NCBI RefSeq assembly: GCF_026571515.1
Contig: NW_026853235.1
Location: 124,001 to 188,000, forward strand
DNA from: Ruditapes philippinarum
Lineage: Eukaryota
Direction of reading: 5' to 3'
Length of the DNA: 64,000 nt
This document shows, piece by piece, positions 6,112 to 57,081 of the stretch. Made by a program: the position numbers and the translations under genes. The notes beneath the pieces were generated by a model that saw only the letters and a program-made list of their open reading frames with translations, did not search any database and had not been told where the DNA came from. Numbering within the stretch: the stretch's first letter is position 1; the number at the start of each line of letters is the position of its first letter.

Positions 6112-6351
6112 TTATTGTATTACGCTGAAAATATTTCACAAGATTATGTTAATGTTTAAAAGGATACATACTGTGTATTAAATAGATTGTTTAAACATAA
6201 GCAAGTACTTTAATATAATGCATGATTTATTGCAAATATAATCATTCTAATGAACATGAAGTTCGTTGCAATTTACATTTTTGTATCGATAATATATTGT
6301 TATTTGACATTAAATGATTTTGATGAAATTAAGATATTTCATGGAGGGCAC

Positions 6352-15368: not shown

Positions 15369-16007
15369 GGTTTTACTGGTGCTGTCCTATAGTACACAAG
15401 AACGCCATGTTCTTTTTTTGATTGAATATCGATAAATTATTTTGTATAATAATATTATCCAAATGCGTACCATGGTATCCAGAAATATAGCCGTTATTTC
15501 AAAAAGCTCTAATAGTGAGGCAAAGTTTTTAAGAAGGACCACCTAAGTGTTGTAAGCTAGATAATTCAGTAACTACATACTTACAGCAGATTAACTTTAC
15601 ACTTCTTCTTAAAATTGCTTTTACGTTTGCAATATTAATTTAACAAACATTCTTTCATTTTAATGTCAATATAATTTATATATTATATTCTACTTTTACC
15701 GTCGCAAATAAGTTAAATGACTGTTTAAGCAAATACTTATTACACTGAAACATGGCATTTTTATTTTTCTATGTTCATATTATATTCTAGCTTCAACATT
15801 GATTTTGACTGACCCGATTTATCTGATAACGATAAACCAAGGCCAACATTTGGTATGTCATATGACATTAAGCATGTTTCACATTTTCAAATTTAAGTGT
15901 TTGAATTACGCACTCAAGCATACATGGAAATAATCGATTGAAACTGTCATGTTTTCTAACTTGTTTGACTTAGAAATACATGTATATTTATTATTGTAAG
16001 TGAATGG

Positions 16008-32910: not shown

Positions 32911-34156
32911 GTAAGTTTAATTGCAACATTTATTCTACTTCAAACAACAAATCAAAAAGATGACTCTTAAATGTCTTTTGTGATTAATGCTTCCGAGATA
33001 TCACTTTGTTTTCAGATTTTTATACTTCACAACCGCAGGTGTCAAGTGGGCTGTGTGGCAACTGTAAACAGTTGTCCCGTACTTCACTTCAGTGTTGTTA
33101 TATTTTTCTTGTCCTTCGGGATCATTGATGCCAGCACTAGTAAGTTTTGAGAATTGAGTACCGCTTCAGTCGGTGCTAGGCGGCGTGAGGCATGTTGCAC
33201 GTTTCAAGTATCCCTCGTGTCAAGCCGAGTCTGCAATTCTCCTGTAATATTGTTGTGATTAATGCTTCCGAGGGATCACTTTGTTTCCAGATGTATGTAT
33301 CATAACATTAATGATACAATTTACTAGGCACATGGTCATGAGATTTTAGGGTTATGTAGTTTGTTTAACATTATGAATACTACTTGATTTAAACATTTTA
33401 AAAAATGTTTAATGGCGATGTCTTTTAAATACATATATAATTACAGACGTATAGCATTGAGTTATTTGATATTCAGATACCATTTATTTGACCCCATATC
33501 GCTTTGTCGGAAGATACGATTCGTTGAAACGAAAACACACAACATAAAGAATACAAGCAACATAATAGTTAATATTTACAATCAGTAGCAGATGTCAATC
33601 ATGATATGGTTGTTTTTGAATAAATTGTAACTGTACGTTATGTTAAACATTATGTATCGTTTTATCAATGGTATCAACATTTGACAGAAAACATTAAGAT
33701 CAACAGTTTTAAATATTATATATATGCTGATAATTGTGTGTAATTCAAACACACAAAAGCTGTTCATTAAATTAAAAAAGCCATGTTTGATTGTGCTACA
33801 ACATTATATATATTGACTTTTTGTTGTTGTTTCAAAATTGTGTAGGACCAACACTCTTTATCATCTTTTTATCTTCATCTTAAAGGGACTCCACTGACTC
33901 CACTGAAGTTTAAAAGCCAGAAACATAAGTTTGATTTTCTTACATGAATGAGCTTGGGCAGTTTAAACAGAAATTTATACAAAAATAGTTACGAAATATA
34001 CTTTTTAGTTTGATATAAGTGTGAACAGCCTTTAAACACTTTCATTTTGGGTTATTTTTTTACGATTTGAATGAATATTCTGGAAAACGAAGTGCGCCAA
34101 CGAACTGAACTTTGCCACACAGATTAGTGGTGTAAACCTACATCAGATTGTACATT

Positions 34157-34490
34157 AGTAGTATAGTCGTTACTTTAGCCCCACGAGGCTGTGACGGCCG
34201 TGTTGACAATATTACATAATACGTCATTAATCTTAAAGGTATTACATTATTGCCCTTATTAAAGATTAAGGAGTATGCAGTGTCCTGACAGTTTTACAGA
34301 ATTCAATTGACAATATTACATCATGTATGTGACATGTCATATCAAAAATATTACGATTAGGTGTGGTTATACTGAACAGATTAAACATTTGGATGCATTA
34401 AGTAAAAGGTCGTTTATTTCCTTTTTACTTCCGTTTCCTGGTAATTCATATTTAAATGCTTAGGAAGAGCTAATAATTACAGTTCACTTT
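34157..34490 (+). repeat. Left terminal inverted repeat of the Polinton
   Basis: The first 30 bp differ from the reverse complement of the right end by 1 base. Looser similarity continues to about 34490, including TTTACTTCCGTTTCCTG...TATTTAAATG. Confidence 0.88.
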
Positions 34491-34528
34491 CAACCTGCTC
34501 AGTGTTTGTATCACACTTTGGTGAAATA

Positions 34529-35029
34529 ATGAACTCTAGTAACCGATGTAAATTGCATGTGTTTTGCGATGTTTATGTGACTATAAGTGACTACAAAAAT
34601 ATCACATACGTACATATGAGGTACTACGACGGAAAATACCCCACGAAAAAGGGTGTTGCTATGCCACTATTACGTTGGAAAACATTGGTGCAACTGATAC
34701 CGAAAATACAGGAAAATCGCAATGCCGATCAATCTGCTTTTGAACATTTAGGAGGTAATTGTTATATTAGCATTACGGATGATATACCTGGTATCGACAT
34801 AAGAGACTTCTGGATGCCCGAGGGAGAATTGAAAATTAAAGCAACAAAACGGGGAGTGCATTTTAGTCAAGAGGATTTTGATAAACTTGTTGATCTGATC
34901 CCACGCATTAACGGTTATATACCCGAGTTTGATGAAATCAAATTGTATGTCGAGAATGACGACCATCAAAACCAGCAGGGAGCCCTACGATGTAAAGAAT
35001 GTAATCCGAACGAATATCACATGTGGTGA
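34529..35029 (+). CDS. Tandem double PC4/Sub1-like (p15 coactivator, ssDNA-binding) domain protein
   Basis: Two PC4-like repeats: YVTISDYKNITYVHMRYYDGKYPTKKGVAMPLLRWKTL and YISITDDIPGIDIRDFWMPEGELKIKATKRGVHFSQEDFDKL. C-terminal H...CxxC. First ATG at 34529. Confidence 0.8.
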   Translation: MNSSNRCKLHVFCDVYVTISDYKNITYVHMRYYDGKYPTKKGVAMPLLRWKTLVQLIPKIQENRNADQSAFEHLGGNCYISITDDIPGIDIRDFWMPEGELKIKATKRGVHFSQEDFDKLVDLIPRINGYIPEFDEIKLYVENDDHQNQQGALRCKECNPNEYHMW

Positions 35030-35434
35030 ATACACAGAGACACTTTATATTAACATATCATAAGAACTTTGTAATATAAGTGATTATATTTTGTTTTATT
35101 GTTAAACGATAAATGTAAAAAATGAAATAAATATACGAAATGTCTATGTGTTGTTAGTGTTCAATAACGTGTGTCCATCATCATCATCACCTATAAGATC
35201 TGTAAATAGATATGAAATTAATAAATGATACACCATAAAAACAATTCACTTATGTATATATCATTATGTTACTAATAAATGAGATATTGTACAGTGGAAC
35301 CTCTATTAACGATTCTTTCATATATTAAGTATCTGAAACAATAAAACTACTTTAGAAATTGATGCTTTCTGACAGAAATAACTCTTTTTTAGGAAATATA
35401 TTTTAACTGTTGTACATGTGATTAGTTTACTTAC

Positions 35435-36390
35435 CTGTACAATAGGCCGACCTGTAGAATTGACACATATTCTGTATTTAGCAGTGTAGTCCAGGTCTTT
35501 GTAAATTGCATGAATATGATAATTGGCTATTGAGGCCGTCGCAAGCGTGACCGCATAAAAAATGTCACCATGGTCCTCGTTTTCATTTGCTGAACAAAAA
35601 ACCCCAGGAAATGTCCAAATTCATGCACAAATGCACCCAGACATTCCTCTAGGTACTTCATTGAATGTAAGTTGATGACGATTTCGCAGAAGTCTTCGTT
35701 TAGTTTCTCTGTCGAAGCATATTCTTCAGAATTATTTGAATCATTGACAAAAATGATTTTTATACACTTAAACTTTGTTTGGCACAAACCAAAATGATAC
35801 AAAAAATATTTTAGCAGTTTGTCTATGGAATAAACTATAAGAGGTATATTGAAATCCGACCAACTTGTATATAAGTCGTCCACTTCTGTTGCAGACACAT
35901 CTGCACAAAATGTCGTCACAACAGCATTTGTATCATATTCGACGTAAGAAAATTGTCCCCGACTTTCTAATATTTTTGTATTATTCTCTTCTTTGATGTG
36001 ATAATAAATTTTTAAGTCCTTTAATGTGTTATCACCTTCTCCCAGATTAGACAATTCGTCGACAGCCATTCCTATTGTCAGACGAATATCTGTATTGAAG
36101 TATGGCTCTATAAAAACAAACGAAAATATATATTAAAATTATGAATCAAATTAAAACGTTTACATGCGCTATTACCTCAAACACTTCAGTTTTTCAAACG
36201 ATATAACCAAAAGCACTTAAATAAATGAGTTAAAGAAAGTAAAGATTGATTTATCATGAAAACACAAATTATTCAATTAAACGGTATATAGAGAGCGGTT
36301 TTAAACAGTAAAAGTATTTACCAATGCGAGACGTATTACTGCTAGTGTAATATCTGTTTTCAGAATTTTCGACTTCACGGCTCTGACCTG
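35435..36390 (-). pseudogene. SprT-like zinc metalloprotease, spliced, frameshifted
   Basis: FVHEFGHFLG (HExxH). A shift in the T run at about 35595 restores ...NEDHGDIF, giving the third His ligand. The exon is bounded by an AG at about 36108 and GTAAGT at about 35435, with a phase-compatible 66-nt upstream exon at about 36322-36387. Confidence 0.6.
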
Positions 36391-36902
36391 AATGAAAATA
36401 AAACAGACCTGTAAAGTTTTCATTAATTTATTTAAAAACTGTATAAAGCACATTTCCTTACATTGAAAACAAGACGTATGCGGATACAATACATTTATAA
36501 ATACTAAATATTCAATTTCGAATTATTGTTATGTTTACACAATGACGAAAAACATTGAAGACGACAAACATTTTATAATATCCTCACGTGTAACTTTTAA
36601 AGTATTATATATACTTTAAAAGACGCATCACTAAACAAGTAACACAAGAAAAAAGCTCTTTTCTTAAAAATTGGATTGATAATAAAGAAATTATAAAAAT
36701 CATAATATTACAATACTATTCATATAAATAATTTGCATATTGTGTCTCTTATTTTAGACAATAATATCCTTTGCTTTAAAAAACAAAATACAATGCTACT
36801 TACCCATTGCAATCATGTTTTAAAATGTATTCTTCTGATTCGAGAAGGCGTTTGATAATTTTCGCTAATTCGGACTTTTCATTCTGTACTAATTTTCTAG
36901 AC

Positions 36903-37020
36903 GAACTTCCGTATATTATATCACTTCCGTATTCAATTTCGCCTATATATTAAGTTATAGATCTTGTTAAGGTATCACTTGTCAGCTACTAAGCCAGTGG
37001 ACACTGAGATTCTGGTAAGT
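36903..37020 (+). promoter_or_regulatory. Candidate promoter: paired ACTTCCG (ETS-like) sites, TATA-like tract, short leader, splice donor
   Basis: ACTTCCGTATATTATATCACTTCCGTATT...CTATATATAAG, then GTAAGT at about 37015. A near copy lies at 38186-38302. Confidence 0.45.
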
Positions 37021-37187
37021 TGATATTTTCTATTTATTTTAATTTATTTCGTTACTGTTCTGGAAATGTGTGTACTTCGTTTAAATGTTATTTATTTTTT
37101 ATTTATAAATTGCAGACGGATGCAAAGATTTTATAGCATATTAGGAAATTATAGTGTACTTAAACCTATCTGCAAGAGTCTCTTATT

Positions 37188-38060
37188 GTGTCGTTGACCG
37201 GTCAAAAATAATATAGAAGTGATAGGTTATTGTTATATTAGTAAAAGTTCGTGTGGCACCGCCTTCTGAGAGTCTGCGAGTGTCTCTGAATGTGTCGCAG
37301 ACCGGTCAAAAATAGTATAGAACTAATACATGTTATAATAGGAGTCAAACTTCGTATGGCACCGCCTCCTGATAGTCTGCGAGTGTCTCTAAATGTGTCG
37401 CAGACCGGTCAAAAATAGCATAGAACTAATATGTGTTATAATAGGACTAAAACTTCGTATGGCACCGCCTCCTGATAGTCTGTGAGTGTCTCTAAATGTG
37501 CCGCAGACCGGTTAAAATAGTATAAAACTGATAGGTCATTGTTACAGGTGTAAAACCTTGTGTGGCACCGCCTCCTGATAGTCTGCGAGTGTCTCTAAAT
37601 GTGTCGCAGGCCGGTCAAAATAGCATAGAACTGATAGGTCATTGTTATAGGAGTAAAACTTCGTGTGGCACCGCCTCCTGATAGTCTGCGAGTGTCTCTG
37701 AATGTGTTGCAGACCGGCCAAAATAGCATAAAACTGATAGGTCATTGTTATATTAGTAAAACTTCGTGTGGCACCGCCTCCTGATAGTCTGCGAGTGTCT
37801 CTAAATGTGTCGCAGACCGGTCAAAATAGCATAGAACTGATAGGTTATTGTTATATTAGTAAACGTTCGTGTGGCACCGCCTCCTGATAGTCTGCGAGTG
37901 TCTCTGAATGTGTCGCAAACCGGTCAAAAATAGCATAGAACTAATATGTGTTATAATAGGACTAAAACTTCGTATTGCACCGCCTCCTGATAGTCTGCGA
38001 GTGTCTATAAATGTGTCGCAGACCGGTCAAATATAGTCTAGAGCTGATAAGGGTTGTTAT
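37188..38060. repeat. Internal tandem array of the Polinton, 103-bp unit x about 8.5, with an interrupted palindrome in each full unit
   Basis: GACCGGTC or a close variant recurs at 37197, 37300, 37403, 37506, 37609, 37712, 37815, about 37919 and 38021. The unit consensus includes GTCTGCGA-N15-TCGCAGAC. Confidence 0.93.
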
Positions 38061-38185
38061 AAGAATAAAAATATTATTTTGACGTACCCTTTTCGAGTGC
38101 TTCCGGAAGTGTTGTAGACAGGCGAGAGTAGTTTGGATTGTACAACTTAAAAAGCCCCTTTGGCACTTCCTTGTTTTCAAAGGTT

Positions 38186-38302
38186 ACTTCCGTGTATTAT
38201 GTCACTTCCGTGTTAATTTTCTCGATATATATGTATCAAATTTAATTTTACTCTGCATTTTATCTGGACAGTGATGTGAAGATCATGAGACATCAGGTAA
38301 GA
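38186..38302 (+). promoter_or_regulatory. Candidate pPolB promoter and non-coding leader exon
   Basis: ACTTCCGTGTATTATGTCACTTCCGTG...GATATATATG, donor CAG|GTAAGA at about 38297, acceptor TTTCAG at about 38597, ATG at 38719. Confidence 0.45.
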
Positions 38303-38718
38303 TTTTAAACTTTAATGGTTATTTTTTTTATTCACTTAATTTTATAAACTTTATAACATGTTAAACTTTATATTTAAAGATACTACTGATATTTCGAAAA
38401 TGCACATATGATATAGCTTTTAAAGCTTAAAAATATGTGTTATTGCAATAAAAGCGGTGAAATGTTAAATGCTTACAGACCAGATGAAATGGTTTGAATC
38501 CTATAACTGATGTCAATGATGGAAACACTCTTCAGACACCCCCCCCCTTTTTTTTTTTGGAGCGTTTCTAATTTTGGTGTTCTTTTCTTTATTTCAGATA
38601 TAAAAATTCCAAGAGAGACAGTCAAGTTACAGAACTTAACTTAGCTACGATTCCGTGTGTCTGTCGTGAAGAATACTGAAGAATAAAAATTTCAGACTTC
38701 CTGATGTAGTTCATTCTG

Positions 38719-41700
38719 ATGAACAACGACATGGAAAGCATTTATAAAACATTTGAAGTTTTGATAAATTCTTTTACAAATGCTGATGAATTACATAACT
38801 TTGTGACAACTTTAGGACTACAGGATATTCCGTCAGCAAGATTTCGATTGTTCCAGTTGAGAAATCCCGAGTACGATGAGAACTTTGTAAACGAAGAGTT
38901 AAGTAGTATTTTTCAACATTTAGAAGGAACTGCTGAACATAACAACGTTGACTTGGAGTTGGCCCTTGAGTATGTAAAAGAGCAAGAAGGCTTTGAAAAA
39001 TTAGTTAAGTCACCATCATGTTTCGACAAAGAAACGAATGAAATGGCAATGGCATCTACTGAAACTGACAAGTGGGAACCCTCAGTACAAGTAGGGTCTG
39101 GGGAAGAACCGCAACCGGGTCCGTCGTATAGATCCAGTCCCCACCCTGCTCTTCAATATACAATTAGAAAAAAATCGGAAAAAACATATGCCAAATATGC
39201 GGCAGTGGATCGAACTTATCAGGTAAAATTAAACGCCCAGCATAAAGGACAAAAGTTACAAGATACACGACAAGGACTCTACCAGATGTTTGACGAAGTG
39301 TTGGACCACGCCCGGGGAAATTTGAAGGGAAACGATTTAGGAAGAGTTGTCTTACATCACGAATCACTTAACAATTCGATTATTGTCCCTCTACAATCCT
39401 GGGATCAGCTTAATGCTAACACAGTGATGGAGACAGTAGAGAAAGAACTGAACAGCAATGAAGCTTTAGCAATTGATGAAAGCTTTGATATTTCAGTTGG
39501 TTCCATTGATTTACCAAAAGGAAGTGGGAGTTCACGTCTCAGAATTACCAAACTTACAGGAAAGAACAATTCCCTCGTGTTAAAGAAATCCATTGTTACA
39601 ATCGAAAATAAAGACATGTTATGTATGTCTAGAGCAATTGCTGTTAGCTGGGCGAAACTGAAAATATGTAGTCCGGACGAATGGAAAGAGATAGCTAAAA
39701 ACAGACAAAAGAAGAGCAATTTACAACTTATTTTACAACACCGAAAAGTTCCAGACAGTTATTTGAAGAAACGTAGGGAGAAAAAAAGAGATGAACAACG
39801 ACAATTAGCTGTGGCTATTAGCCAGTTGGCTGGAATAGCCTTAGACAGACCAGCGAGTTTAAATGATGTAATGGCTTTTGAAGAAGTACTGAGGGTGCGT
39901 GTAATGGTGATCAGTGCAAGGCTTGGCAACAAGTTTATTACAAGTCCAAGTACCGACGAACGACCATGCATTTACATTTATTTAATGAACGACAACCATT
40001 TTCACGCCATTACATCAATTACAGGTTTCTTTTGCGCCAACTACTTTTGCAACCGCTGCCTCAAACATTACGACCATAAAGAAAGACATGGATGTAAAAC
40101 GCATTGTATAATATGCAAAAGTGATGGATGCGTAATAACAGAAACATCCGTAGTCTGCACTAACTGTAATATGAGCTGTAGATCTCCAGATTGCTATAAA
40201 CGACATTTAAAGACACCCGTACACAACAAAGGAAAATATAAAGGAAAGCCCAGAGGTCCGTCCCAGTGCGAAAAATGGTGGAAATGTCCAGTCTGTTATA
40301 AAGTTGTGAACAGAGAAAAAAAGACAAAAAGAAGAACATCAGTGTGGAGAGTACTATTGTTCTTCATGTCAAAAATTTGTTTTTGAAGATCATTTATGTT
40401 ATATAAGAGCTATGCCAGCTAAAGAAGATTTCAATCCAAGATTTATATTTTTTTATTTTGAATGTACGCAAGACCAAATTTTAGAATGTCAGGAGGGATA
40501 AATCGTTACCAAGAAACCAGATTGTAGAGACTGTCAACCAGAACAGAAGTGTAAAGCCTGCTCCAAATATCGCCACTGTAAAACATCGTCGTGCGGAAAA
40601 GCCATACATCGACCCAATTTCCTCGTAGCTCACTCAGTATGTCCAGATTGTATTGATAAGCCTTTAACGCCAAAATCCGTCTGTAATAAATGTGGAACAC
40701 GTTGCGAAGAATGTGACAGCACTAACCTATTCGATGAAGAAGATACAGAGCCATGCCATGAAAAGTGCGGGTTCAGGGAAGTTATATTTGAGGGTGAAGA
40801 CACTGCTGAAAAGTTTGGCGAGTGGTTATTTTCTGATCAGCACCGACATTTTAAAGCCGTGGCTCACAATATGAAAGGTTATGATGGCTATTTCCTTCTT
40901 GAATACCTTATCAACCAATCAGTACGACCAGACAAAATTATCTATAACGGTTCCAAAATTATGTACATGTGTGTAGAGAAAGGGTTACATATTAAAGTTT
41001 TAGACAGTCTAAATTTTCTACCCATGAAATTATCGGCATTACCCAAAACCTTTGGATTACAAGAATTAAAGAAAAGCTGGTTTCCTCATTTCTTCAACAC
41101 AAGGGAAAATCAACAGTATGTAGGACCCTACCCGAAACCCAAATTTTACGGTGTTGATTTCATGTCCACAAATGAAAGAAAAGAATTTTTGCAGTGGCAC
41201 CTGACTAAAGAGGGTGAGCTGTTTGAATTAAGAAAACAAATACTTGAATACTGTAGAAGTGATGTGGATATTTTGAGACAAGCCTGTCTTAAGTTTAGAC
41301 ACTTATTAATGACAGCTACCGGTAAGCAAGAAGATATAATCAGTGACAAAGGAAAGTTGAAAACGGTTTGGGTGGGTGCTATAGATCCTTTTGACTATGT
41401 AACTATAGCATCCGTATGCATGAACATGTACAGAACTAAATTTTTAGAAGAAAAGTGGAAGGTCAAGTTAGACAAAGAGAGTAAATGGACTCCCGCTCAA
41501 GTCACTGACGGGAAATTATACGTTTATCACCAGAACAAATGGATCGGAGAGGACGACCTAAAAGACAATAAAATTGATCATAAAGAATTTGTTTCAACCA
41601 AAATAGCAAAAATCCCTTCCAGCGGTTACAGAGATCAATACAGTAAAGTTTCCATACAGTGCTTAGAATGGATAGCCAGCCATGAAGAAATCTATATCCA

Positions 41701-43391
41701 ACACGCTTTAAATGTCGGCGAAAAAGGTCTAACCGGAACACGTTATAAATTAGATGGTTACTGCGTAGAGACCAATACAGCCAATGAATTCCATGGGTGT
41801 GTTTTTCATGGGTGTCCTACTTGCTTTCCAGAAGATCGGGAGGGGACCTTTCACCCCCAAACAAAACAGTCCATGAAGGAACTCTATGCTTTCACGATGA
41901 AAAAAGAAACATTTCATAGAATGCCAGGGAATAAAGTATGTCTGTATTTGGGAACATTAATTTCACGAACAGCTAGAACAAAACACCGAACTGAAAATAT
42001 TTATAGACAATTTAGATTTGACGGACAGATTAGATCCACGGAAAAGTTTCTTTGGATGTAGAACCAATGCCAGTCAACTTTACTACAATGTCCAAGAGGA
42101 TGAAACATATAATACGTTGACTTCACAAGCTTATACCCCTGGGTTAACAAGTATTGTGAATATCCTGTTGGTCATCCGAAAATCATTGTTAAAGATTTTC
42201 AAAATATAAGTCAGTACTTTGGCATTGCAAAAGTTAAGATTTTACCACCAACAGACCTTTATCATCCTGTTTTACCGTACAGATCCAACGGAAAACTGAA
42301 ATTTCCACTCTGTAAGATCTGCGCAGATACCGAAAATCAAGATGACTGCACATGTTCGGACGAAGACAGAACGTTAACTGGCACCTGGTGTACACCTGAA
42401 TTACAGACAGCAGTAAGGCTAGGTTACAAAATTATGAAAATGTACGAAGTATACCACTGGGAAGAAACCACCAAATATGATTCCTCCACAAGAGAAGGGG
42501 GTCTGTTCGCTAAATACATTAACACCTTTCTTAAGTTTAAGCAAGAGGCAAGCGGTCCACCTGATTGGATTAAGAACGAAGAAGATTTATCTAAATACAT
42601 ACAGCAATATTTTGAAAAAGAAGGTGTTTCATTGAAGGTGGAAGAGATCATAAAGAACCCTGGATTAAGAGCATTGGCAAAATTATGCCTAAATAGCTTT
42701 TGGGGCAAGTTTGGACAGCAGCTAAACATGCGACAGACTAACTTTTTTCACAAAACAGAAGTCAGTGAGTTTTTTCAACTGTTTTCCGATACGATGAAAC
42801 AACCGCAAAACTTTCACATTCTCTCAAACGAAATTCTTCAAATGGAATGGACTTACAAAAACGATTGTCAGCCCGAAGATAATAAAACGAACATATACCT
42901 GGCCACCTTTACCACATGCTGGGCTAGACTCAAACTCTACAGCATGTTGGAAGTGTTAAACAGAAGAGTCCTGTATTACGATACAGACAGTGTCATATAT
43001 GTGAGTAGAAAAGGACAATATGATCCACCTTTAGGAGATTACTTGGGTGAATTAACAGACGAATTAAATAGTGACGTATACATTGTAGAGTTTGTGTCAG
43101 GAGGGCCAAAAAACTATGCTTATAAAACCAATAAAAAAAGAATTGTGTAAAGTGAGAGGGTTCACGCTTAATTTCACAAATAGTCAATTAATCAATTTTC
43201 AAAGTGTTAAAACCATTGTGACAAATCCAAAATGTTGTAAAACTATCGTAGTGACAAACCCGAGTAAAATTTGCAGAGACAAACGAAAAAGAAAACTGGT
43301 TAATAGGGAAGAGCAAAAAACGTATCAAATGGTGTATACTAAACGTAGAATATTAGACAATTATGATACTATACCATACGGATATCGATAG
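38719..43391 (+). pseudogene. polB: Protein-primed family B DNA polymerase (pPolB) with Cys-rich N-terminal region and VSR-like nuclease insert; several frameshifts and stops
   Basis: Exonuclease motifs AHNMKGYDGYF, DSLNFLPMKL, FPHFFN, YCRSDVDIL. Insert IQHALNVGE..YKLDGY..EFHGCVFHGC. Polymerase motifs YVDFTSLYP (about 42112-42140), KLCLNSFWGKFG, YYDTDSVIY, KNYAY, KVRGFTLN. Confidence 0.95.
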
Positions 43392-43727
43392 AAAGTAATT
43401 GAATGTGATAAATATGTCAATACTGTTACTTGTTTTTTGTTTGCACAGTTTATGTTATGTACTTGTTGTTTTGTTTTTTGCAGCAGTTGCTCCTAAATTT
43501 GTACGTTTGCATATAAATTCCTCGCTGGTACGTTTCAGTTTTTGTCACTAGCCTTACATGTTTTGCCGGTAATATTATTTATTTTGTCATAACTGTTAAC
43601 ATCTGTGTTACGGATGATTTAAGAAATACAATGTCACTCTCGTATTTATAAATGTTTAACTGAAGTATGTAAGAACAGGTCATTTTTGACTCATTTTGTT
43701 ACGTCTGTTAATAAGAACGTAAAATAA

Positions 43728-44006
43728 ATGAATACTCCAGAAACACATGAATCCGGAAGGGAATCTTTTATTTATTTTCCCAAATCCAATGAAGAAAGTC
43801 GATCAAGCGAGGAAAGGTGGCATTTGTTAGGTACTTGTGTACCCAAAGCCGAAATCGTTTATTTTTGCCAAATGATCATTGTGTACATCATTATCATTAC
43901 CTCGATCGTAAACCTGTCGCTCAGAAACGGCTCCCCAGAACTTTGGATTAGTCTTCTCAGCAGCTGTATCGGTTACGTCTTGCCGAGTCCTAAGATCAAG
44001 AAATAA
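43728..44006 (+). CDS. Small two-TM membrane protein of the Polinton
   Basis: Hydrophobic segments IVYFCQMIIVYIIIITSIVNL and LWISLLSSCIGYVLPSP. Its stop overlaps the ATPase start (TAATG). Confidence 0.7.
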   Translation: MNTPETHESGRESFIYFPKSNEESRSSEERWHLLGTCVPKAEIVYFCQMIIVYIIIITSIVNLSLRNGSPELWISLLSSCIGYVLPSPKIKK

Positions 44007-44914
44007 TGAAGTCTGCATTACCGTTTAAGCCTTGTTCCAGTATATGTATTAGTGGTCAAACCGGAAGTGGAAAAACGCAATGGGTGTATAGGTTTTTGAA
44101 AAACTTGAAGGATATGTATTCTGAAGATCCTCCTTCACACATATTATACTGTTACGGTATACATCAAGACTTATTTGACACGATGGAACAATTCATTCCA
44201 CATTTTGACAGTAAACAGGGTCTACCAACAGCTGAGCAACTGGATGACTTTACCCGGGACAAGAGACATAAGCTGATCATTGTCGATGATCTTATGCACG
44301 AAGTGATGAAACATAAAGATATGGAATTGTTATTTACTCAAGGCTGTCATCATAAGAGGGTTTCTGTCATACTAATTACACAAAACTTGTATCCAGGTGG
44401 TAAACACGCCAGAACTATCGCCTTAAATACCTGGTACATTGTACTAATGAAAAATTTAAGAGATGTCTCGCAGGTAGGAACATTAGGGAGACAAATGTAC
44501 CCTGGAAAAACGAAAGGTTTCATGAAAGCCTATGAAGACGCATTAGAAACGAAGCACGGTTCTTTTTTGGTAGATATGAGCCCACACGCTGAGGAGAGGT
44601 ATCGTCTGAGGACCAATATATTTCCGGGAGAGGATTCCAGTAAGAAGAAGGAAGTTAAAACTTGTAAGAGTAACCATGGTGGAACTCATCAGACAGCAAC
44701 GTCATTTTTTACAACTATTGGTGCAAACATTCCCAGCGCAAAGGAAAGTATTGTTAAGCACGATTACCAGACAACAACTGAAGTCTCTTGCTCAAATTGC
44801 ATACAACGTTCTTCGATTTACTATTGTTATGTATGCAACATATTACATGTATATAGTTTGTATCTGACCAGTTGGTATTTCCAATATTATCATTGTTCTA
44901 TTTTTAGAACATAA
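44006..44914 (+). CDS. A32/FtsK-like genome packaging ATPase; the tail beyond about 44650 is probably spurious read-through
   Basis: Walker A GQTGSGKT, Walker B LIIVDDL, HHKRVSVILITQNLY, RTIALN, RLRTNIFP. Confidence 0.93.
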   Translation: MKSALPFKPCSSICISGQTGSGKTQWVYRFLKNLKDMYSEDPPSHILYCYGIHQDLFDTMEQFIPHFDSKQGLPTAEQLDDFTRDKRHKLIIVDDLMHEVMKHKDMELLFTQGCHHKRVSVILITQNLYPGGKHARTIALNTWYIVLMKNLRDVSQVGTLGRQMYPGKTKGFMKAYEDALETKHGSFLVDMSPHAEERYRLRTNIFPGEDSSKKKEVKTCKSNHGGTHQTATSFFTTIGANIPSAKESIVKHDYQTTTEVSCSNCIQRSSIYYCYVCNILHVYSLYLTSWYFQYYHCSIFRT

Positions 44915-45642
44915 ACTACATGTATGTACTAGAACTTTAATAACTGTTGTAGAAAACTCATGCATTATATTTAGATAGAAATTTCTGGAATGAAATTTAT
45001 TATTGGTGAAGTTGCTAGATTATGATTACTGTAGTAAATGGAAGACTATTCTAGAAACTTCTTAGTTAATATATATAAGGAGACATTTTTCATTACTCTT
45101 ATCTTTAAGTCATCAGTTACCTTTTAAGTCATCAATATATTTGGAGTATTTTACAACTTGGATATTAAGTGATTTATTGGAGCTTGGATTATTTTAAAAT
45201 AGTTAAAATTATTCTTGTGGATTTTATTGTGGGAATTTATTCTAAAGTGTTCTTGGATTTTACTTGGATTTAAATGTGCTATTCAAAAAAGGATCATTCC
45301 AGGATCAGACTAGACATTTGAGATTTCATTTTTATTTGGACTTCAGGTATTTGTAAACATAATTTGTTATTTTATTTTTCTTTAATAATTTTTCTGTAAT
45401 AAATTTGTTATTGTTACAAGTTTGTTGCTGGCTTTTCTTTCTTGTTACGCCTGGCTCGTAACACTATAAAACTGACGTCATCCGAAAAAGTCCGTCTTAA
45501 ACGACAGAGACGTTTTATTTACCTGCTGGGAAACAAGAAGATTGGATTTCAAAAGAAAAAGGAAGCTATCAGAGACAATCAAAGAACTACATATACTTTG
45601 GTTAAAATTACCTCAGTGTATTTAGAACCCCTATTGCAATAA
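44676..45642 (+). pseudogene. Basic core-like Polinton protein interrupted by a solo LTR
   Basis: Removing 44825-45467 joins MVELIRQQRHFLQLL...IAYNVLRFTI to KLTSSEKVRLKRQRRFIYLLGNKK... in frame. Confidence 0.8.
44825..45463. mobile_element. Solo LTR (639 bp); 4-bp TSD suggests Gypsy type
   Basis: TGTTAT...GTAACA termini, CTAT duplicated at 44821-44824 and 45464-45467, internal TATA-like tract and AATAAA. Confidence 0.85.
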
Positions 45643-45863
45643 TGGACAAGTACATTTTGATCCCCTATGACAAATACCAACGCCTATTTCAGCCTAAGTA
45701 CAATGGGTCTGGAGAAGTAAAGGATGATGACAAGACCGAAATTATTCCTAAAATCTTTTTACCACCACCTGGAGAACGTGACAAGAAAATGAAAAGAAAG
45801 CATGTAAAGAAACCAAAAATGACTTATACGGACAGTGTTAAATCTATAAACTGGTTGTATTAA
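45642..45863 (+). CDS. Small Polinton protein of unknown function (73 aa)
   Basis: Start overlaps the upstream stop (TAATG). MDKYILIPYDKYQRL...PPPG...INWLY, followed by AATAAA. Confidence 0.6.
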   Translation: MDKYILIPYDKYQRLFQPKYNGSGEVKDDDKTEIIPKIFLPPPGERDKKMKRKHVKKPKMTYTDSVKSINWLY

Positions 45864-45935
45864 GAAACAACAACGAAGTTCTTTTGTAGTTATCTCTTTT
45901 ATTACTGTATACAAAATAAACGAATACAAATTTTA

Positions 45936-46358
45936 TTATTTGTTTTTATTTACAATGTTGTTAACGTACTGATCATTCAGTGCCCGGTTATACACATTAA
46001 AAGGTTGTACAATGTCCTTCATTTTTATATTCGCATATCTTGTCATGACGTAATACACGCAATAAAGTCCGCAGGTATCTGATTTAGAGTCTTGAATCGG
46101 ATCACATATCATCCAGTACTTGTTTGTTAATACGGTTTCAAACCCCACCTTGTAGTCACTAGGCAGTTTACTGAGAGAATCAAAGAATTCGTAAGGTCCT
46201 CTCCTTGGAAAGTAAAAGGTGACCCAATGTTTTCCGGGTCCATCGCTCGTATCCGTATTAGCAATTACAAATTGTCCCTTTTTAGCGCGTAATTGGTCAG
46301 CCGCACATACTGTTACTGGGTATCCTACGAGTAAACGTTCTAGTTCTAAATTATTCAT
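45936..46358 (-). CDS. Adenain-like cysteine protease (virion maturation)
   Basis: NTDTSDGPGKHWV (His), EFFDS (Asp), Q...SDTCGLYC (Gln, Cys). Confidence 0.92.
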   Translation of the reverse strand: MNNLELERLLVGYPVTVCAADQLRAKKGQFVIANTDTSDGPGKHWVTFYFPRRGPYEFFDSLSKLPSDYKVGFETVLTNKYWMICDPIQDSKSDTCGLYCVYYVMTRYANIKMKDIVQPFNVYNRALNDQYVNNIVNKNK

Positions 46359-47609
46359 TTCACGTACACGGCTTTAGCTTTATCGATATTGAGTACCTCG
46401 GGGAAAGTGGCGTACATAATCAAGGTGACACTCTCTGGTAAAGCCTCAGTGAACTTAAGTTCTAGACGGCAATGTCCCTTCCTTTTTGTATTGAATGAAT
46501 AGTAAGGGTCTATATCAAGAGCGTACAAGCAGTATCCATTCTTGTAATTTTCTTTGGAAATGTTGAGATCGTTTCTGTAGAGAGCTAATGTTCTGTAACA
46601 GTCCACGTAGTGATTGGCCGTATAATTTGGTTGCATCGGCTGACAAGGTAAAGAATGTCCATCGACGTAGAGTCCTACAAAACTGCAGTTTGTAATGTTT
46701 AAAGTTGAATGGGTTCTGTGTGTAATCACCATTAAACGCCGCGCTAGAGACTAGACCTACTATCAGTTTACTTGGTACTAAACCTTGGAATATATCATCT
46801 GCGCTGTAACTGAACTGGCCAGAGGCAATAGCTGTGGTTTTGATCTCTGTGCGTAAGTAAGTGTATATGGCTGGTGTATCTTGAATGAGCTTCTCACGCG
46901 CTATTATTACGCTACTAGTGAGTCGCTGAATGCAGAGTCTGAAATAAGCATCCACTATTTTCACTCGGTAATCTGGACTGATAGCGTCAGTGATGATTCT
47001 AAATGCATCTCGACTAGGATGGAGTTTTATACCGACAGAGACTACGTTGATGAGTAGTTTTGACTGTTGAAACAAATCAATATGTAATGGTCCTTCCATA
47101 TCCACAATCTTACTACCTTTAGTAAGCACGTATCTCATAAATAGTCCACTATTACTGCCCGTTTTACCATCATTGGTACCAACGTCACCCGTATCTTTAA
47201 AGAAGAGTTGACTGGTCAACAAGTTCACCTGCATATTTTCGTTGGACTGTAAAATCGTGTCTATGTAAGCTTTGTAGGGATAATTGATTCCTGTGTGTGA
47301 TAAAGGCGTTTGCTGCAGAGACACATCGACCTGACTGAATATAGTGTGTAAAGGTAGATTGATTGGCCCCACCACCTCGTCTGGGTTTATTGCACTGCCA
47401 TCGCCTTTGACAATTTGAATTTTTAGGTTTAGCACGCTCCTTTTCAGATCCATATAAGCCGAAGACTGGCCCGGTATATTGAATTCGAGAGCGGACGCAT
47501 TTGTCACTTGATTTACTGGCCGGTATGTGATCCATTCTCTCGATTGCAATGACGGGTCTGCAGGGGGTGAAACGAACAAGGACAACTCTTCTTGGTGATA
47601 ATCTTCCAT
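46355..47609 (-). pseudogene. Major capsid protein (double jelly-roll), one frameshift near 46690
   Basis: EELSLF...YRPV...LEFNIPG..AYMDL...LHTIFSQVDV...YPYKAYI...GPLHIDLF...NPFNFKHY, then in the second frame ISKENYKNGYCLYALD...RLELKFTEALPESVTLIMYA. Confidence 0.9.
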
Positions 47610-47690
47610 GTTCTTTAGAACTGAAATTCGGGACCGACAAAGTTAGGTCTCCTTTGCTTAGATGGTTTGCAGGTGAGCACTGTGGTATTC

Positions 47691-47990
47691 TTACGCTTTT
47701 TTTGGTCCTATCTTACTTTGGCCTTCTTGTTCAGCCTTAATACGTCTGACCTCAGACACGGCAATTTCTGTCGCCTGTGCAACGGGTGATACCAGTTTTA
47801 ATGGCGGTGCCTGCTTCATTTCGGTCAGTTTTCTAAGATGATTACCGCTACCGACGATGTAACGGCCTCTGTGATCGGGTCTTACATAACCCTCACTCAT
47901 ATCCTTGAAATGTTGATACCATTTCTCTGGGTCGGGAACATATGGTACCCATTTCATTTGTTTATAATCGTATACTTCTATGGAGCCCAT
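47691..47990 (-). CDS. Small Polinton protein of unknown function (99 aa)
   Basis: Intact ORF between mCP and MCP: WVPYVPDPEKWYQHF...IVGSG...VSPVAQA, with a basic tail. Confidence 0.65.
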   Translation of the reverse strand: MGSIEVYDYKQMKWVPYVPDPEKWYQHFKDMSEGYVRPDHRGRYIVGSGNHLRKLTEMKQAPPLKLVSPVAQATEIAVSEVRRIKAEQEGQSKIGPKKA

Positions 47991-48409
47991 ATTTTCTTAA
48001 AATGTAAAACGCAGTGAAGATCGTTCGATTTGAATTCAACTGGGTATAAATCTTCGTCTCTCAAATACAAATTCAGCGTGTTGAAATGATTCGCTGCCAC
48101 TGGTACGTATATCGGATGCGTGTATTCTACAGCTTGAAGTTTTTTGTATCTGGTGCCCACTTCGATATTTCTAAGTATGGATATTTGCGTGTTTCTGACG
48201 TAAGTTTGCTCCACCAAATCGCAGCATAAATACAGTCTTTTACTTTGAGGTGTAAAATCGCAGGTGAGAGAAATTTCTGTTAAGGCACAGGTCCAACGTC
48301 CTTCCAACGTATACGACTTGGGAAACTGAATATAAAAGTCTGATGGATTGTTGTTCTTACGTATGTTCTGAGAATATGCACTGTTAAGATAAAGATAAAA
48401 GTCGGACAT
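47978..48409 (-). CDS. Minor capsid protein (penton, single jelly-roll)
   Basis: MSDFYLYLNS...NNPSDF..FPKSYTLEGRWTCALTEI...LYLCCDLVE...ILRNI...YVPV...LRDE...CVLHFK. ATG at 48409. Confidence 0.85.
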   Translation of the reverse strand: MSDFYLYLNSAYSQNIRKNNNPSDFYIQFPKSYTLEGRWTCALTEISLTCDFTPQSKRLYLCCDLVEQTYVRNTQISILRNIEVGTRYKKLQAVEYTHPIYVPVAANHFNTLNLYLRDEDLYPVEFKSNDLHCVLHFKKIWAP

Positions 48410-48449
48410 GTTTGTTTTGTTTTTTATATTTATGCGAGTCTTTGCTTTC

Positions 48450-48797
48450 TTACGCTTCTCTGGTGGATCTGACTTCGTCCAGGATAGTATCAAAGAGGTA
48501 TGGAGGTCTTAACAACACGGTTACCAGAGTGTGATGACGTCTTATCAACGATTTCTTTCTAGTCTGTGACACGTGTCTGGAAGCCAAGGACCGTAGCAAA
48601 AGTCGTCTTCTTTCAATTAATTGAACGTCTCTTCTCAAGGGATTAATGGTTCCATTCACCAATCTCTTGGCCACTTGAGCTATAGCCTTCATTTGACTAA
48701 CCGTCATATTGGTGATCATATTTTTTCTGGCAGTTATAGTGGCATCCTTTAAGTGGAGAAGATAATTGAGTTTACGGTACACCTGAGACTGGTTCAT
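48450..48797 (-). CDS. Basic core-like Polinton protein; apparent paralog of 44676-45642
   Basis: Shared pattern L..L.......RK.ll...T..Q.K..AQ.A......TI......L.R.R.....L......Q.KK..IR; Arg/Lys-rich. Confidence 0.7.
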   Translation of the reverse strand: MNQSQVYRKLNYLLHLKDATITARKNMITNMTVSQMKAIAQVAKRLVNGTINPLRRDVQLIERRRLLLRSLASRHVSQTRKKSLIRRHHTLVTVLLRPPYLFDTILDEVRSTREA

Positions 48798-49344
48798 GGT
48801 TGATTTCTCTTAACATCAACTCCTTCTTACGCGTGTACTGTTCCAGTTCAACGAGTACAGGATAGACCACGTCATCGATCTGTGAGAGAAATTTAATTCC
48901 CGTTATAACCACCTTACCACTGTGGAAACAACAAAAGTTCATGTTATCCCTCTTAAGGTTAAGAGCTGGAAAGAGGTCCGGTTCATACATCACATGTCTT
49001 TCCGCTGCTAACTGTTTTAAATCTAGCGATGAACTTAAAGTATGACAGCAAGATACGGTTAAACACTTGATGCTTGTTAACTTGACTTGTAAGCCAAGTT
49101 TTTGAAGTTTTCTGGCGTATCGTCGTAAACGTAATCGCCCTTCCTTAACGCTGGCTGCTTTTCCATTACAGTTGAAACTGCCATTAGAAAACACTAAACA
49201 GTTTCCACCGATGGTTTTGTGTTGCCAAATAAGTCCGGGAAATTTTCTTGGCTCGTACCTCGCATTTGAAATGCGGTAACATAAATGTCGCAAGTTGATA
49301 GGACAGAATTATTTGGCACTGGTTACAACGTTTGTGATGATCAT
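48772..49344 (-). pseudogene. Divergent minimal TATA-binding protein (TBP) homolog; one premature TAA at 49309-49311
   Basis: MIITNVVTSAK*FCPINL...ARYEPRKFPGLIW...CLVFSNG...RRYARKLQKLGL...LDLKQLA...MYEPDLFPAL...CFHSGKVVITG. Both TBP core repeats are present. Confidence 0.92.
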
Positions 49345-49421
49345 AACTGGTTAATAGCTAACCTTTAAGTGAAAGTAAACAGTCAATTTATTACCTATAA
49401 ACTGAGGTAAAAATCACGTGA

Positions 49422-50530
49422 CTAGGAGTACTGTGTTACTTCTGTTTCCGGGATCCAGCTGTCGTATTTTTAGGCCAATGCAACCACCTGACCATTACCT
49501 CACGCTGATTGTTTCGAGTCCTTTTCTTCAGTATTTTTTCAATATGGTATGCTGTCGTCTCATCCACACTAACCGCTTGTAGTTCATGCTCATAAAATGT
49601 ACCGTCTATCAATTCACCGTCCCAGTTCACCAGTCTGTAGATTGGTAGATCCTGTCTTCTATAACGCGTTTTAATTTTAAAGATTTCACAAGTCCATTTC
49701 TAAGAATATTCCCGATCAAACACGTTTCGCACGTGTGACACACGTACTGTTTGACCTATTTTAAAGTTGTATCTTATTCTTCTCTGCTTCAGCTTTATTT
49801 CCTTTGGTTCTCAGTAAGTACTGCTGCAGCCGGCTTTTTCCTTCAGTCTCTACACTAATGCTTGCAGGATGGGTCCCCAAACTACGATTTAATGTATGAT
49901 TATAACTATGTATCATATTTTGAAAAACTTCTATATAGAGCTGTGTTTTGTTTTTCAGCATATATCTGAAAATCTTATGTTTGATTGTCTTAATAAATCT
50001 CTCGGCATAATTAGCTTTGGTTTCGGTGTTCAGGGCATACAAATGATGTACATGTTGACCTTGTAAATATCTTTTTACGTCCTTGCTTCTAAACTCCATT
50101 CCTCTGTCTGTGCGGATGGTATTTGGTTTCCGTGAGTTTGAAAGTATCTGTGCTAAAGCTAAAACTACCTGACTTCCCTTTTTAGTTTTGATGGGTTGGG
50201 CCTGAGCATAACGGGAAAAATATCTATGGCCACAAAGATGTCTTTATAACCGTCATTTTGTTTTGACACGTCACTCATATCCATTAAGTCCAAATCCCAC
50301 TGACTATCAACCCCGTTCACAATCACTCTAGAACGTTTGAAACGACGCCTGGCCCCTCTTGTCAAAGAATAGGATTCTTGATCTTGTAACCATTTTCGTA
50401 TTTTATGTCTCCCGATGTTATATATATTCTCCTTCTTCACGTATTAATATAATTTCTCAGGACCACCGAAACTAGCTGAATGTTTCGGGTCAAAGTACAA
50501 AGATGACAAATAATGCCTCCAGTTTGTCAT
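49422..50530 (-). pseudogene. Retroviral-like (DDE) integrase with C-terminal chromodomain; multiple lesions
   Basis: YFDPKHSASFGG, QWDLDLMDM, IDIF, RTDRGMEF, AERFIKTIK, YNHT, GTFYEHELQ; chromodomain YHIEKILKKR...VRWLHWP..YDSWIP. Confidence 0.93.
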
Positions 50531-50630
50531 GTTTTTATCTTTGCACAATTTTAACTAATTCTTACACAACTGAAATATCTTATATGCATTACAAAGTCAT
50601 ATTCTAATATTTACAACAAAGAAAATTAAA

Positions 50631-50789
50631 TTATAAAACAGTTGCAGTCCTATTTTCATCCATATTAATTCCTAAAACTTCAAATAATCTTTCAACAACT
50701 TCGATGGCTTCTTGCTTTAACTGTCTATATCTTAACCACCATTCAAAGTCTCTAAACAGTGACAAAATAACAAATGCAAAACCAATCAT
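50631..50789 (-). CDS. Possible 52-aa ORF with hydrophobic N-terminus
   Basis: MIGFAFVILSLFRDFEWWLRYRQLKQEAIEVVERLFEVLGINMDENRTATVL; starts 2 nt after the BIR gene stop. Confidence 0.35.
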   Translation of the reverse strand: MIGFAFVILSLFRDFEWWLRYRQLKQEAIEVVERLFEVLGINMDENRTATVL

Positions 50790-50791
50790 GA

Positions 50792-51205
50792 TTAATAGCG
50801 ATTAAAATGTTTTCCTATAAATAAATTAGATCCAGTAGAACTGTTTGATTCCGGTGCAGTTCCAAAACCGAAGGTATTGTTACAAATTCCATGTAATGTG
50901 ACAATTCTATCACCACTCTTGTACCCAGTCATTCTCAGATAGATACACTCTGGAGACCAATTTGCGTGTTCTTCCCAATGTTCGTCTTTCGGTTCCTAGG
51001 ACATCAAGTTTATGCCACAGGCAAAACACATAACTTTATCGACATTACCTGTATAATAAAATCCCGCTTTGGTTAACGCTTCTTTACCCTGTTTTATTTG
51101 TTTCGACCAGTGTTCAAACGTTACCAGCCGATCATCATAAAACTTCATGTCTAGCTTGAAAAACATTGATGATCTCACTGAATCGCTTTTGGTAAAAAAA
51201 TTCAT
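50792..51205 (-). pseudogene. Single-BIR inhibitor-of-apoptosis-like protein; conserved Trp codon replaced by TAG at 50996-50998
   Basis: RLVTFEHW...LTKAGFYYTGNVDKVMCFACGINLMS*EPKDEHWEEHANWSPEC, i.e. the CX2C...HX6C BIR signature. Confidence 0.92.
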
Positions 51206-51289
51206 ATCAGTAAATCAATGTTCTTAAAACGTGTCAAATCTATAAGTTTTATACCTCATCAAAGCACGAACAGACACCAAGTAATTTGA

Positions 51290-51538
51290 AAATGTTACTG
51301 TAGCTATTAACTTTCCTCAAACATTTAAATACGAATGATCAGGAAACGGAAGTAAAAGAAAGTAAACAACCCTTTACCTAACATGTCAAACGTTTAACCT
51401 GTATTGTATACACATACGTAATCGTAATATTATCCGCTAGGTCTTGTCTCATTAATGACGTAATAGTGTCGATCAAATTATGCAATCTGTCAATATGGCC
51501 GCCACAGGTCGTGGGGCGAAAGTAACGACTATACTACT
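51290..51538 (-). repeat. Right terminal inverted repeat of the Polinton
   Basis: Reverse complement aligns to 34157-34490; ends ACTACT followed by the TSD. Confidence 0.88.
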
Positions 51539-54017: not shown

Positions 54018-54816
54018 TTAACATTAAACAAATGGATAAGGTTTGTTATAGAATAACATGTTGTTCAACATTATGTATTCACCTTGACAAAAACATTTAA
54101 GGATATGTTCACTTGTGATGTCATTAAAATAGGATTAACGACACGTAGCATATTGTGTTTCTATACAAGTATATGTAATGTTTTACCCAGAAATAATGTG
54201 CTGGAACGAATAAAAAATGTGTATAAAATGCTACTAACATGTGAAAGTAAAAAATGTACAAACGGATTTAAACTATAATCATGTGCTGATATTATGTTTA
54301 ATACCCACGATTCTGAACTGATTTTATACAGTCATGTTACTTTACCTGAATAACTACGTCATGAAATTCATAAAACCCTGTGATGATTTTGTTACCACAT
54401 TGTATTCATTGAATTTGTGTTATTGTTACAAATTGTATCAGATACAGTGATTAATATACAAATCTGATTATTGGTCGGCTTGTGCTTGGAAGTAACAAGC
54501 TTTACTATTTTTTGTTTCAAACACTTGTGACCGGAAAGAAAAAAAAATGTAATTTTATCACTAGACATGTTTATGTGTCTTAATGTGTTTTGAGATGTGT
54601 TGTTAAATAACATGAATATTTTCTTGCATTTCTGCATTGCAAGTCTTGTCAAATTGATCGTTTCTTTTTGATATTTGTTGTCTTTTTTGCTGGAATCATC
54701 GTGTTGACATTGTAAATAATGAATGAAAATCTAATGTAAATCTATACCGCATTGACAATGTAAGAATCACGTGAAAGGCCATTCAACACATAGACTGGCA
54801 TTTCACTTTCTGTCAA

Positions 54817-56931: not shown

Positions 56932-57081
56932 TTAAAGGAACTCAAAGTTATCTTATTCGAATAAATGTATAAAAGTGTAACTTTAGCATATTGGGTATTC
57001 CGTCATTGTCAAATTAATCATATATATTTTTATGATTCAAATGAATGACCAAAAAGTGTAGAAATACAAGAGGAATTTAAT

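Follow-up and report, generated by a model that had tools for sequence, protein, structure and literature searches.

Polintons, or Mavericks, are defined by terminal inverted repeats (TIRs) ending in (AGT)2 and by a 6-bp target-site duplication, and the part of the source available to us adds that particles of animal Polintons have not yet been seen and that the timing of their capsid genes is open, with no RNA polymerase and no known helper (PMC8097293). Beta- and gamma-herpesviruses pair a TBP-like protein (KSHV ORF24, EBV BcRF1, HCMV UL87) with TATT late promoters, according to the accessible part of PMC4893493. We analysed a 64,000-nt stretch of Ruditapes philippinarum DNA, called the window below (NCBI RefSeq assembly GCF_026571515.1, contig NW_026853235.1, positions 124,001 to 188,000, forward strand), and found in it an integrated but decayed Polinton (Maverick) from a bivalve family with its own TBP gene. 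The element spans 34157..51538 of the window (17,382 bp), ends in AGTAGT on both sides and is flanked by TACATT duplications, so it has both defining features; an earlier note on this DNA had described the same 17.4-kb unit with an intact duplication.

The virion and integrase genes of this family are preceded by a variant box, (C/T)GTAAGAA. The reading that we favour, with somewhat more confidence than doubt, is that the family's altered TBP binds this box, recruits host TFIIB and RNA polymerase II (Pol II), and would thereby switch on the late genes.

A conserved box heads the late units

In the window copy, (C/T)GTAAGAA heads each late unit: the 92-aa open reading frame (ORF), the core-like gene, the integrase, orf115, the penton and the major capsid protein (MCP) (Table 1). 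Genes that overlap or abut the previous stop have no such box, namely the ATPase, orf73, orf121 and the protease. We counted GTAAGA on the sense strand at most 110 nt upstream, with a background of 4% in the window and 2-5% overall. The window gave 6/6 lead genes, 0/4 coupled genes, 0/4 early genes and 0/6 in antisense. We took as sisters the ten best after the window's own among 44 genome matches to TBP; they had the motif before 58/59 lead, 0/38 coupled and 2/37 early genes, and are near-copies, not independent. A close metagenomic clade showed it before 17 of 21 lead, none of six coupled and none of 12 early genes. The far metagenomic clade uses mostly ATAAGA (GTAAGA 1/25, TAAGA[AG] 16/25). 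Ten TBP-less Polinton loci in the same genome scored 0/21 for GTAAGA and 2/21 for TAAGA[AG], and a genome-wide Pfam search found no TBP on the contigs of these controls.

The minus-strand late block contains eight sense and no antisense sites, with 1.9 expected and at most 6 in 100 shuffles, and none of 5000 random draws gave any 7-mer at 6/6. The box is kept despite changes in gene order (L074, L076). At the 3' end of the TBP gene it forms Arg-Lys-Lys codons in clam elements; nine metagenomic elements have it as the stop codon, and a tenth has a variant. Since this box is preserved in two reading frames, the constraint acts on DNA.

Among 17 representative elements, 42 of 49 genes were preceded by the box, and 41 of these 42 genes had one at least 30 nt from the ATG, with a peak at 33-49 nt (the orf115 row of L085 duplicates the core-like gene in this count). 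Eighteen boxes stood at 30-39 nt and two at 20-29 nt, and the distances have a floor near 33 nt. The TATA box before the window's own TBP gene is degenerate. A CACGTG E-box lies ahead of the TBP promoter in the window, the sisters and several metagenomic loci.

The element TBP has a predicted rebuilt DNA face

The TBP named in the earlier note was found by Pfam (Table 1). A Mercenaria relative, 72% identical to the window's protein, has a predicted fold with pLDDT 95 and a TM score of 0.90 to human TBP, a match far better than to viral TBPs. Residues were assigned by alignment to human TBP and are given in yeast numbering. The protein retains the equivalents of F99, F116, F190, F207, N69, V71, E186 and E188 (D in the window), and the changes are N159T, V161S, V122N, T124N, I194N, V203N/H and L205C. 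The two-repeat saddle fold and the four intercalating Phe are thus present, and the symmetrical Asn/Val/Thr minor-groove face for TATAWAW is absent. The acidic TFIIB loop reads E/D in the window and E/E in the sisters. As modelled, the element TBP is a protein that retains the fold and the TFIIB loop but has a rebuilt DNA face.

Changes at I194, V203 and L205 (TBPm3) let yeast TBP accept G at position 2, as stated in the part of PMC1636458 available to us. In elements of the GTAAGA clade these positions hold N/V, H/N/T and C/S, and in the ATAAGA clade mostly M, H and T/N. The match of residues and boxes is a correlation across two clades only.

TBP, PC4x2 and BIR are maintained in the family

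The sisters have TBPs 66-74% identical to that of the window and, at the same position, MCPs about 75-87% identical. Between 3 and 13 of their 13 genes are open, and two sisters have both ends and 6-bp duplications. The earlier note had grouped TBP with a tandem PC4 gene (PC4x2), a BIR gene and a SprT-like gene. Of these, TBP was detected in 10/10 sisters, BIR in 9/10 and PC4x2 in 9/10, and the fourth, an HExxH gene, only in the window's subfamily. For three pairs of sisters from different subgroups, dN/dS was 0.12-0.16 for TBP, 0.05-0.12 for PC4x2 and 0.13-0.29 for BIR, values like those of the core genes. By this measure TBP, PC4x2 and BIR are evidently under purifying selection, and we rejected the idea that frameshifts mark them as neutral cargo.

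We found 104 TBP homologs, the named ones being from Mercenaria, Pinctada, Tegillarca and Mytilus. A metagenome scan returned 28 loci, 26 of which had a clear TBP; L100 and L101 were left out of the TBP counts as weak matches. PC4x2 was present in 20 of these 26, directly upstream of TBP in 18, and the six TBP loci where it was missing are short or partial contigs. A viral-contig scan with a TBP relative as query returned no loci. In an MCP tree (21 rows, midpoint root), the 16 TBP-bearing elements formed one side of a branch with support 89/97.

A proposed late switch and its alternatives

The favoured reading can be laid out as a sequence of steps. Early, host factors would recognise the promoters of TBP, PC4x2 and BIR, which consist of an ordinary TATA box and TCA(T/G)T. 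During replication, pPolB would copy the excised linear genome, and PC4x2, mimicking a PC4 dimer, would cover displaced strands and may assist the viral TBP. Late, the viral TBP would recognise the variant box, some 30 nt ahead of the start site, yielding short-leader two-gene messages whose second gene would be translated by stop-start coupling. BIR would damp apoptosis, and the HExxH gene would be exchangeable terminal cargo. The earlier note had inferred that the element controls its own early and late transcription, and the tracking of the late-gene box with TBP supports this as an association.

Several observations weigh against the TBP reading. The six lead genes were chosen after the motif was seen, and their split agrees with the stop-start overlaps. 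The TBP-less controls were read over 10 kb on either side of the ATPase, with ends not located. Of 16 representative elements, 6 have no box before the integrase. The initiator TCA(G/T)T lies 26-34 nt after 12 of 29 early TATA boxes versus 3 of 64 late boxes; because late boxes have no downstream initiator, a box that is itself the initiator also fits. L082 and L083 use ATAAGA although their residue 205 is a small Ser, so the link between residue and box is loose. The window's own TBP gene is broken: it has a premature stop in frame and has lost its normal stop codon. In an integrase tree of 24 rows, the distribution of TBP needs two changes. TBP and box may also be co-inherited, both following one clade, instead of coupled. 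The last point comes from a second type of element, which has the box and no TBP and would need action in trans.

All six long-frame ATPase matches that we fetched belonged to this separate, satellite-like type, and about 40 similar rows occurred in the ATPase search. The four satellites examined are 7.5-8.3 kb long, with AGTAGT ends and 6-bp duplications. They encode an ATPase (450 aa, with a zinc-finger-like N-terminus), orf121 and a protease, and some also encode BIR; genes for capsid, integrase, polymerase and TBP are absent. TAAGA[AG] precedes 14 of their 18 genes. These boxes fit either trans activation by the TBP of a helper element or a helper virus as discussed below. We tentatively extend the TBP reading to the whole clade, as a conjecture that we hold with less than even confidence: it would run an autonomous early-to-late programme in which the DNA face of one captured, re-tuned TBP co-evolves with a promoter code private to these elements (GTAAGA versus ATAAGA). 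The 7.5-8.3-kb satellites would have copied that code for their own ATPase and protease, hijacking helper particles as phage satellites do.

The box could instead be an initiator for the late polymerase of a large DNA virus acting as helper, with TBP otherwise engaged, for example in decoying host factors. We regard this as unlikely, although it accommodates the satellites and the lack of a host-type initiator downstream of late boxes. It likens the box to baculovirus TAAG or to the virophage use of giant-virus late promoters; the core contains GTAAG/ATAAG, the baculovirus late motif, and helper-matched promoters are known in virophages from sources available in part. However, autonomous TBP-less Polintons in the same host lack the box, and the floor of the ATG distances is what a TATA-like box predicts. 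Position 2 also shifts with the TBP clade, and the GA after TAA is invariant only through the search pattern.

A further alternative, which we judge improbable, is that the box acts on RNA, as a 5' splice or U1 site (GTAAG), or is read by orf115, the core-like protein or PC4x2. GTAAGA resembles the splice-donor consensus, and second boxes at 9-22 nt from the ATG are too near for a TATA box. We rejected the splice-donor reading, as the farther clade has ATAAGA/CTAAGA, without GT. TBP-less elements have orf115-like, core-like and weak PC4-like genes but no box. Finally, it is very improbable, and largely refuted, that TBP, PC4x2 and BIR were captured from the host as passive genes and that the motif arose by chance: the broken window TBP and BIR and the swapping of terminal genes between subfamilies point that way, but dN/dS is well below 1, TBP homologs carry bivalve names from four genera, and the sense sites outnumber those in shuffled sequence.

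Gene content of the element

Pfam searches of the element detected two PC4 domains, pPolB, an A32-type ATPase, a C5 protease, TBP, an rve integrase with a chromodomain, and BIR. The replication and integration module proposed earlier was thus recovered, pPolB and the integrase both being broken in the window copy. Of the proposed full virion module, the packaging ATPase and the adenain-like protease were recovered by Pfam close to the cut-offs (Pox_A32 22-23 bits against 22.8; Peptidase_C5 21 bits against 21.3, with His/Asp/Cys motifs visible). The capsid genes stand on weaker, positional ground, with no sequence match for MCP or penton in Pfam, NCBIfam, PHROG or PDB. Their probable identities follow from position, length, the published penton-gene-MCP layout in the part of the source available, and the NCBI name 'F54H12.2-like', which we take to denote the Maverick capsid.

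Table 1. Features of the element and related loci (window coordinates unless a locus is named)
Feature	Position	Strand	Basis
Left target-site duplication TACATT	34151..34156	.	sequence
Left TIR, AGTAGT end, imperfect arm reaching PC4x2 start	34157..34535	+	
PC4x2, 166 aa, open; two C-terminal domains of PC4 and a Cys/His tail	34529..35029	+	Pfam PF02229 E 2e-13, two stretches
Gene for HExxH zincin-like metallopeptidase, frame apparently shifts past the motif	35321..36069	-	not found in sister subfamily
Tandem array, 103-bp unit, 8.7 copies, upstream of polB	37169..38070	.	
pPolB gene, broken	38665..43391	+	Pfam PF03175
Late box TGTAAGAA before membrane-protein/ATPase pair	43668..43675	+	
92-aa two-helix hydrophobic ORF, stop overlaps ATPase start	43728..44006	+	
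A32/FtsK-type packaging ATPase, lesion near C-terminus	44006..44660	+	Pfam
Late box AGTAAGAA before 107-aa core-like gene, second box at 44664	44639..44646	+	
Basic 107-aa core-like gene, split by insert	44676..45639	+	
High-copy host repeat (like a miniature inverted-repeat transposable element), 643 bp, inserted in window copy	44820..45462	.	
73-aa basic ORF (orf73), coupled to core-like gene	45642..45863	+	
Adenain-like C5 cysteine protease, open	45936..46358	-	Pfam PF00770 E 3e-4, just below cut-off
Probable MCP, frameshifted	46355..47609	-	position, NCBI name, length (417 aa in sisters)
Late box CGTAAGAA before MCP	47688..47695	-	
ORF of conserved 121-aa family (orf121), penton-MCP interval, truncated in window	47691..47990	-	
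Probable penton (minor capsid), 143 aa, open	47978..48409	-	one gene away from MCP
Late box CGTAAGAA before penton, overlaps orf115 stop codon	48447..48454	-	
Basic 115-aa ORF (orf115), open	48450..48797	-	
Element TBP, core domain only, 175 aa in relatives	48820..49344	-	Pfam PF00352 E 1e-24
Late box CGTAAGAA before orf115, within last TBP codons	48824..48831	-	
rve integrase plus chromodomain, broken	49425..50530	-	Pfam
Late box TGTAAGAA before integrase	50559..50566	-	
Single-BIR gene without RING, in-frame stop within domain	50795..51205	-	Pfam PF00653
Right TIR	51150..51538	-	arm reaches BIR upstream region
Right target-site duplication TACATT	51539..51544	.	sequence
Satellites	G000 C7548, C1382, C13508, C11664 (L044-L049, L064-L065); also C5835, C7050		
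Weak PC4-like genes	L040 9156-9680; L043 362-862; L093 5654-6073; L095 4682-5212		

The TIR arms are imperfect, with 86% identity over 64 bp and 75% over 243 bp. We rejected decay of the window copy as the cause of this asymmetry, since contigs from another individual are about 98% identical to both ends. Nothing else in the assembly closely matches the left end. The 103-bp array contains the palindrome GACCGGTC and is a possible origin or enhancer.

Accessory genes

The two PC4 domains and the BIR reported earlier were both found by Pfam, the BIR with a stop inside the domain in the window copy. PC4x2 begins at its first domain and, by alignment, has no regulatory N-terminus. Cellular PC4 carries an N-terminal Ser/acidic and Lys-rich regulatory region and acts as a dimer. 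To judge from its sequence, PC4x2 looks like a single-chain PC4 dimer. Because the regulatory N-terminus is missing, a role as a single-stranded DNA (ssDNA)-binding replication protein, of the kind that protein-primed replication requires, is as likely as one as a coactivator; it could also be a helper of TBP, or both. A second gene type, of 140-177 aa with one weak PC4-like domain, occurs in TBP-less and TBP-bearing Polintons, so that weak single PC4-like genes are not confined to elements with TBP (Table 1).

The BIR gene scores above the Pfam cut-off in a sister and has Cys/Cys/His/Cys zinc ligands and no RING. BIR was also found in TBP-less Polintons of the same genome. The BIR of the window is 74-78% identical to that of a third subfamily versus 43-45% to those of the sisters. 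Sisters carry PC4x2 next to BIR at the right end; the window PC4x2 lies at the opposite end, is 34-40% identical to theirs and forms a long separate branch in a quick PC4 tree. L066 (1998-7973) and L067 (2354-7498) are palindromic derivatives: an integrase fragment lies in the middle, and each arm carries PC4x2 and BIR.

The HExxH ORF had no second match in the genome. A HMMER scan gave one real partial homolog, P0226; two further matches were dropped as repeat-driven chance. The model of this protein is of low confidence (pLDDT 45), and its best structural matches are zinc metallopeptidases (Z 4-5.7). Wss1 (Z 4.7, rmsd 3.0, 86 aligned) ties with aminopeptidase N, HtpX and Ste24. For SprT, nothing clear came from Pfam, NCBIfam, PHROGs or Foldseek, and a word search returned only the window's own gene model (Ruditapes philippinarum, identical to the HExxH ORF). 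By its motif and the low-confidence model, the protein may be called zincin-like, with SprT/Wss1 as one candidate among several zincins.

PC4x2 and BIR thus belong to lineages other than those of TBP and of the window's MCP, which is about 86% identical to its sister counterparts. Together with the uniqueness of the HExxH gene, this means that terminal genes have been exchanged between subfamilies and that the four genes are not one module. The earlier gene list was mostly right, and its complete four-gene module did not hold.

State of the window copy and its surroundings

The element had been called complete, but many conserved ORFs are disrupted. Compared with the ORFs of one sister, frameshifts, stops or an inserted repeat break polB, the core-like gene, MCP, the 121-aa ORF, TBP, the integrase and BIR. 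The ATPase reading frame continues beyond its usual end, and the HExxH ORF seems to shift frame after the motif. An apparent lesion in the 92-aa ORF is an artefact that arose because the query was longer.

Contigs of runs X2 and X6 skip the 643-bp repeat. Those of X2 are about 98% identical over most of the element and end exactly at both of its ends, so the subfamily is present in other individuals, where its copies probably sit at other sites. DNA depth in runs X2 and X6 at 46484-48899 is several-fold to 40-fold that of the rest of the element, which suggests a high-copy derivative sharing that part. We rejected runs X23 and X24, labelled RNA-Seq, as evidence of transcription: 57-76% of their reads run on into unlike sequence, with GATC loose ends and no strand bias, and they look like proximity-ligation DNA (Hi-C-like). 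Runs X11 and X17 consist of contigs whose RNA origin is a guess, and no start-site pile-ups were seen.

Elsewhere in the window, positions 1-6925 hold a long terminal repeat retrotransposon of Bel/Pao type by its ORFs (gag, reverse transcriptase, integrase); its direct repeats, 198 bp each, lie at 1-198 and 6728-6925. A long interspersed nuclear element reverse-transcriptase tail (11918-13141, minus strand) and a B-box/coiled-coil host-like ORF (19154-20014, plus strand) were named by eye. Tandem arrays occur at 8114-8698 (58 bp), 14455-15468 (42 bp) and 54802-56942 (about 747 bp).

Comparison with known systems

The element shares its ends, 6-bp duplication and core genes with Polintons and Beta-type adintoviruses. 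Compared by figure text, its gene order resembles the labels of Fig. S2 panel B in the available part of PMC8502044. Beta adintoviruses are recognised by a Beta-class PolB with an OTU domain, a Beta hexon/penton cluster, GasderminX and Cupiennin; our searches returned no reference sequences of adintoviruses. In that part, Starrett et al. 2021 report homologs of inhibitor of apoptosis proteins (IAPs), with IAP labels beside the Mytilus and Pinctada maps, so that one portion of the gene set, the BIR/IAP gene, had already been catalogued. TBP appears there only in the Fig. 5 legend, in the section on non-animal datasets. The word 'promoter' is absent from the accessible text of PMC8502044 and 'PC4' from its searchable supplement, where figures or GenBank records may still annotate TBP or PC4. 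An 'SSDBP' label on its Hydra and Stylophora maps could be a PC4-like gene.

In the accessible parts of the literature covered (10.1101/697771, 10.1101/2025.04.19.649669, PMC11131425, 10.64898/2026.06.19.733378, PMC12220804, PMC10294476, PMC11296320, PMC11161782, PMC8917759, PMC13159474 and PMC4028283), we found no account of animal Polintons that pair a TBP with a late box; the search did not extend to Repbase or to most papers behind subscriptions. The kind of element and IAP in adintoviruses were already known, and this family is set apart within that kind by the TBP with its matched late box, the linkage with PC4x2 and the box-sharing satellites. If true, the TBP reading would give a late switch of minimal make-up, separate from that of herpesviruses, and an example in nature of a TBP with reprogrammed specificity. 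It would predict transcript start positions and which copies can be expressed. Some bivalve 'TBP-like 1' gene annotations would be viral, and so perhaps would some intronless single-BIR IAPs that are ascribed to retroposition in sources available in part.

Cellular TBP has the same fold, four Phe and acidic loop; the element TBP differs in being intronless, without an N-terminal extension and only about 31% identical. Yeast TBPm3 is changed at the same three positions, but the element residues are not those of TBPm3 and more of the DNA face is altered. PC4/Sub1 has the C-terminal ssDNA-binding domain in common with PC4x2, which differs in its two domains per chain, added Cys/His tail and missing regulatory N-terminus. 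Viral BIR proteins share the zinc ligands; the element gene is a single BIR without RING.

Giant-virus TBPs work with a viral polymerase, and they are at most 20% identical to the element TBP, a weaker likeness than that of cellular TBP. The TBP-like proteins of Nucleocytoviricota and the VLTF3 of coral polintoviruses, as described in sources available in part, are likewise viral basal or late transcription factors. The herpesvirus TBP likewise serves a virus without its own polymerase and a variant TATA box on late genes, a parallel that here is an association only. Genes for a six-protein complex of the herpesvirus type were not among the element ORFs. The late viral preinitiation complex of herpesviruses is such an assembly, with a TBP mimic that binds Pol II directly, whereas the element has one 175-aa TBP that keeps the TFIIB loop.

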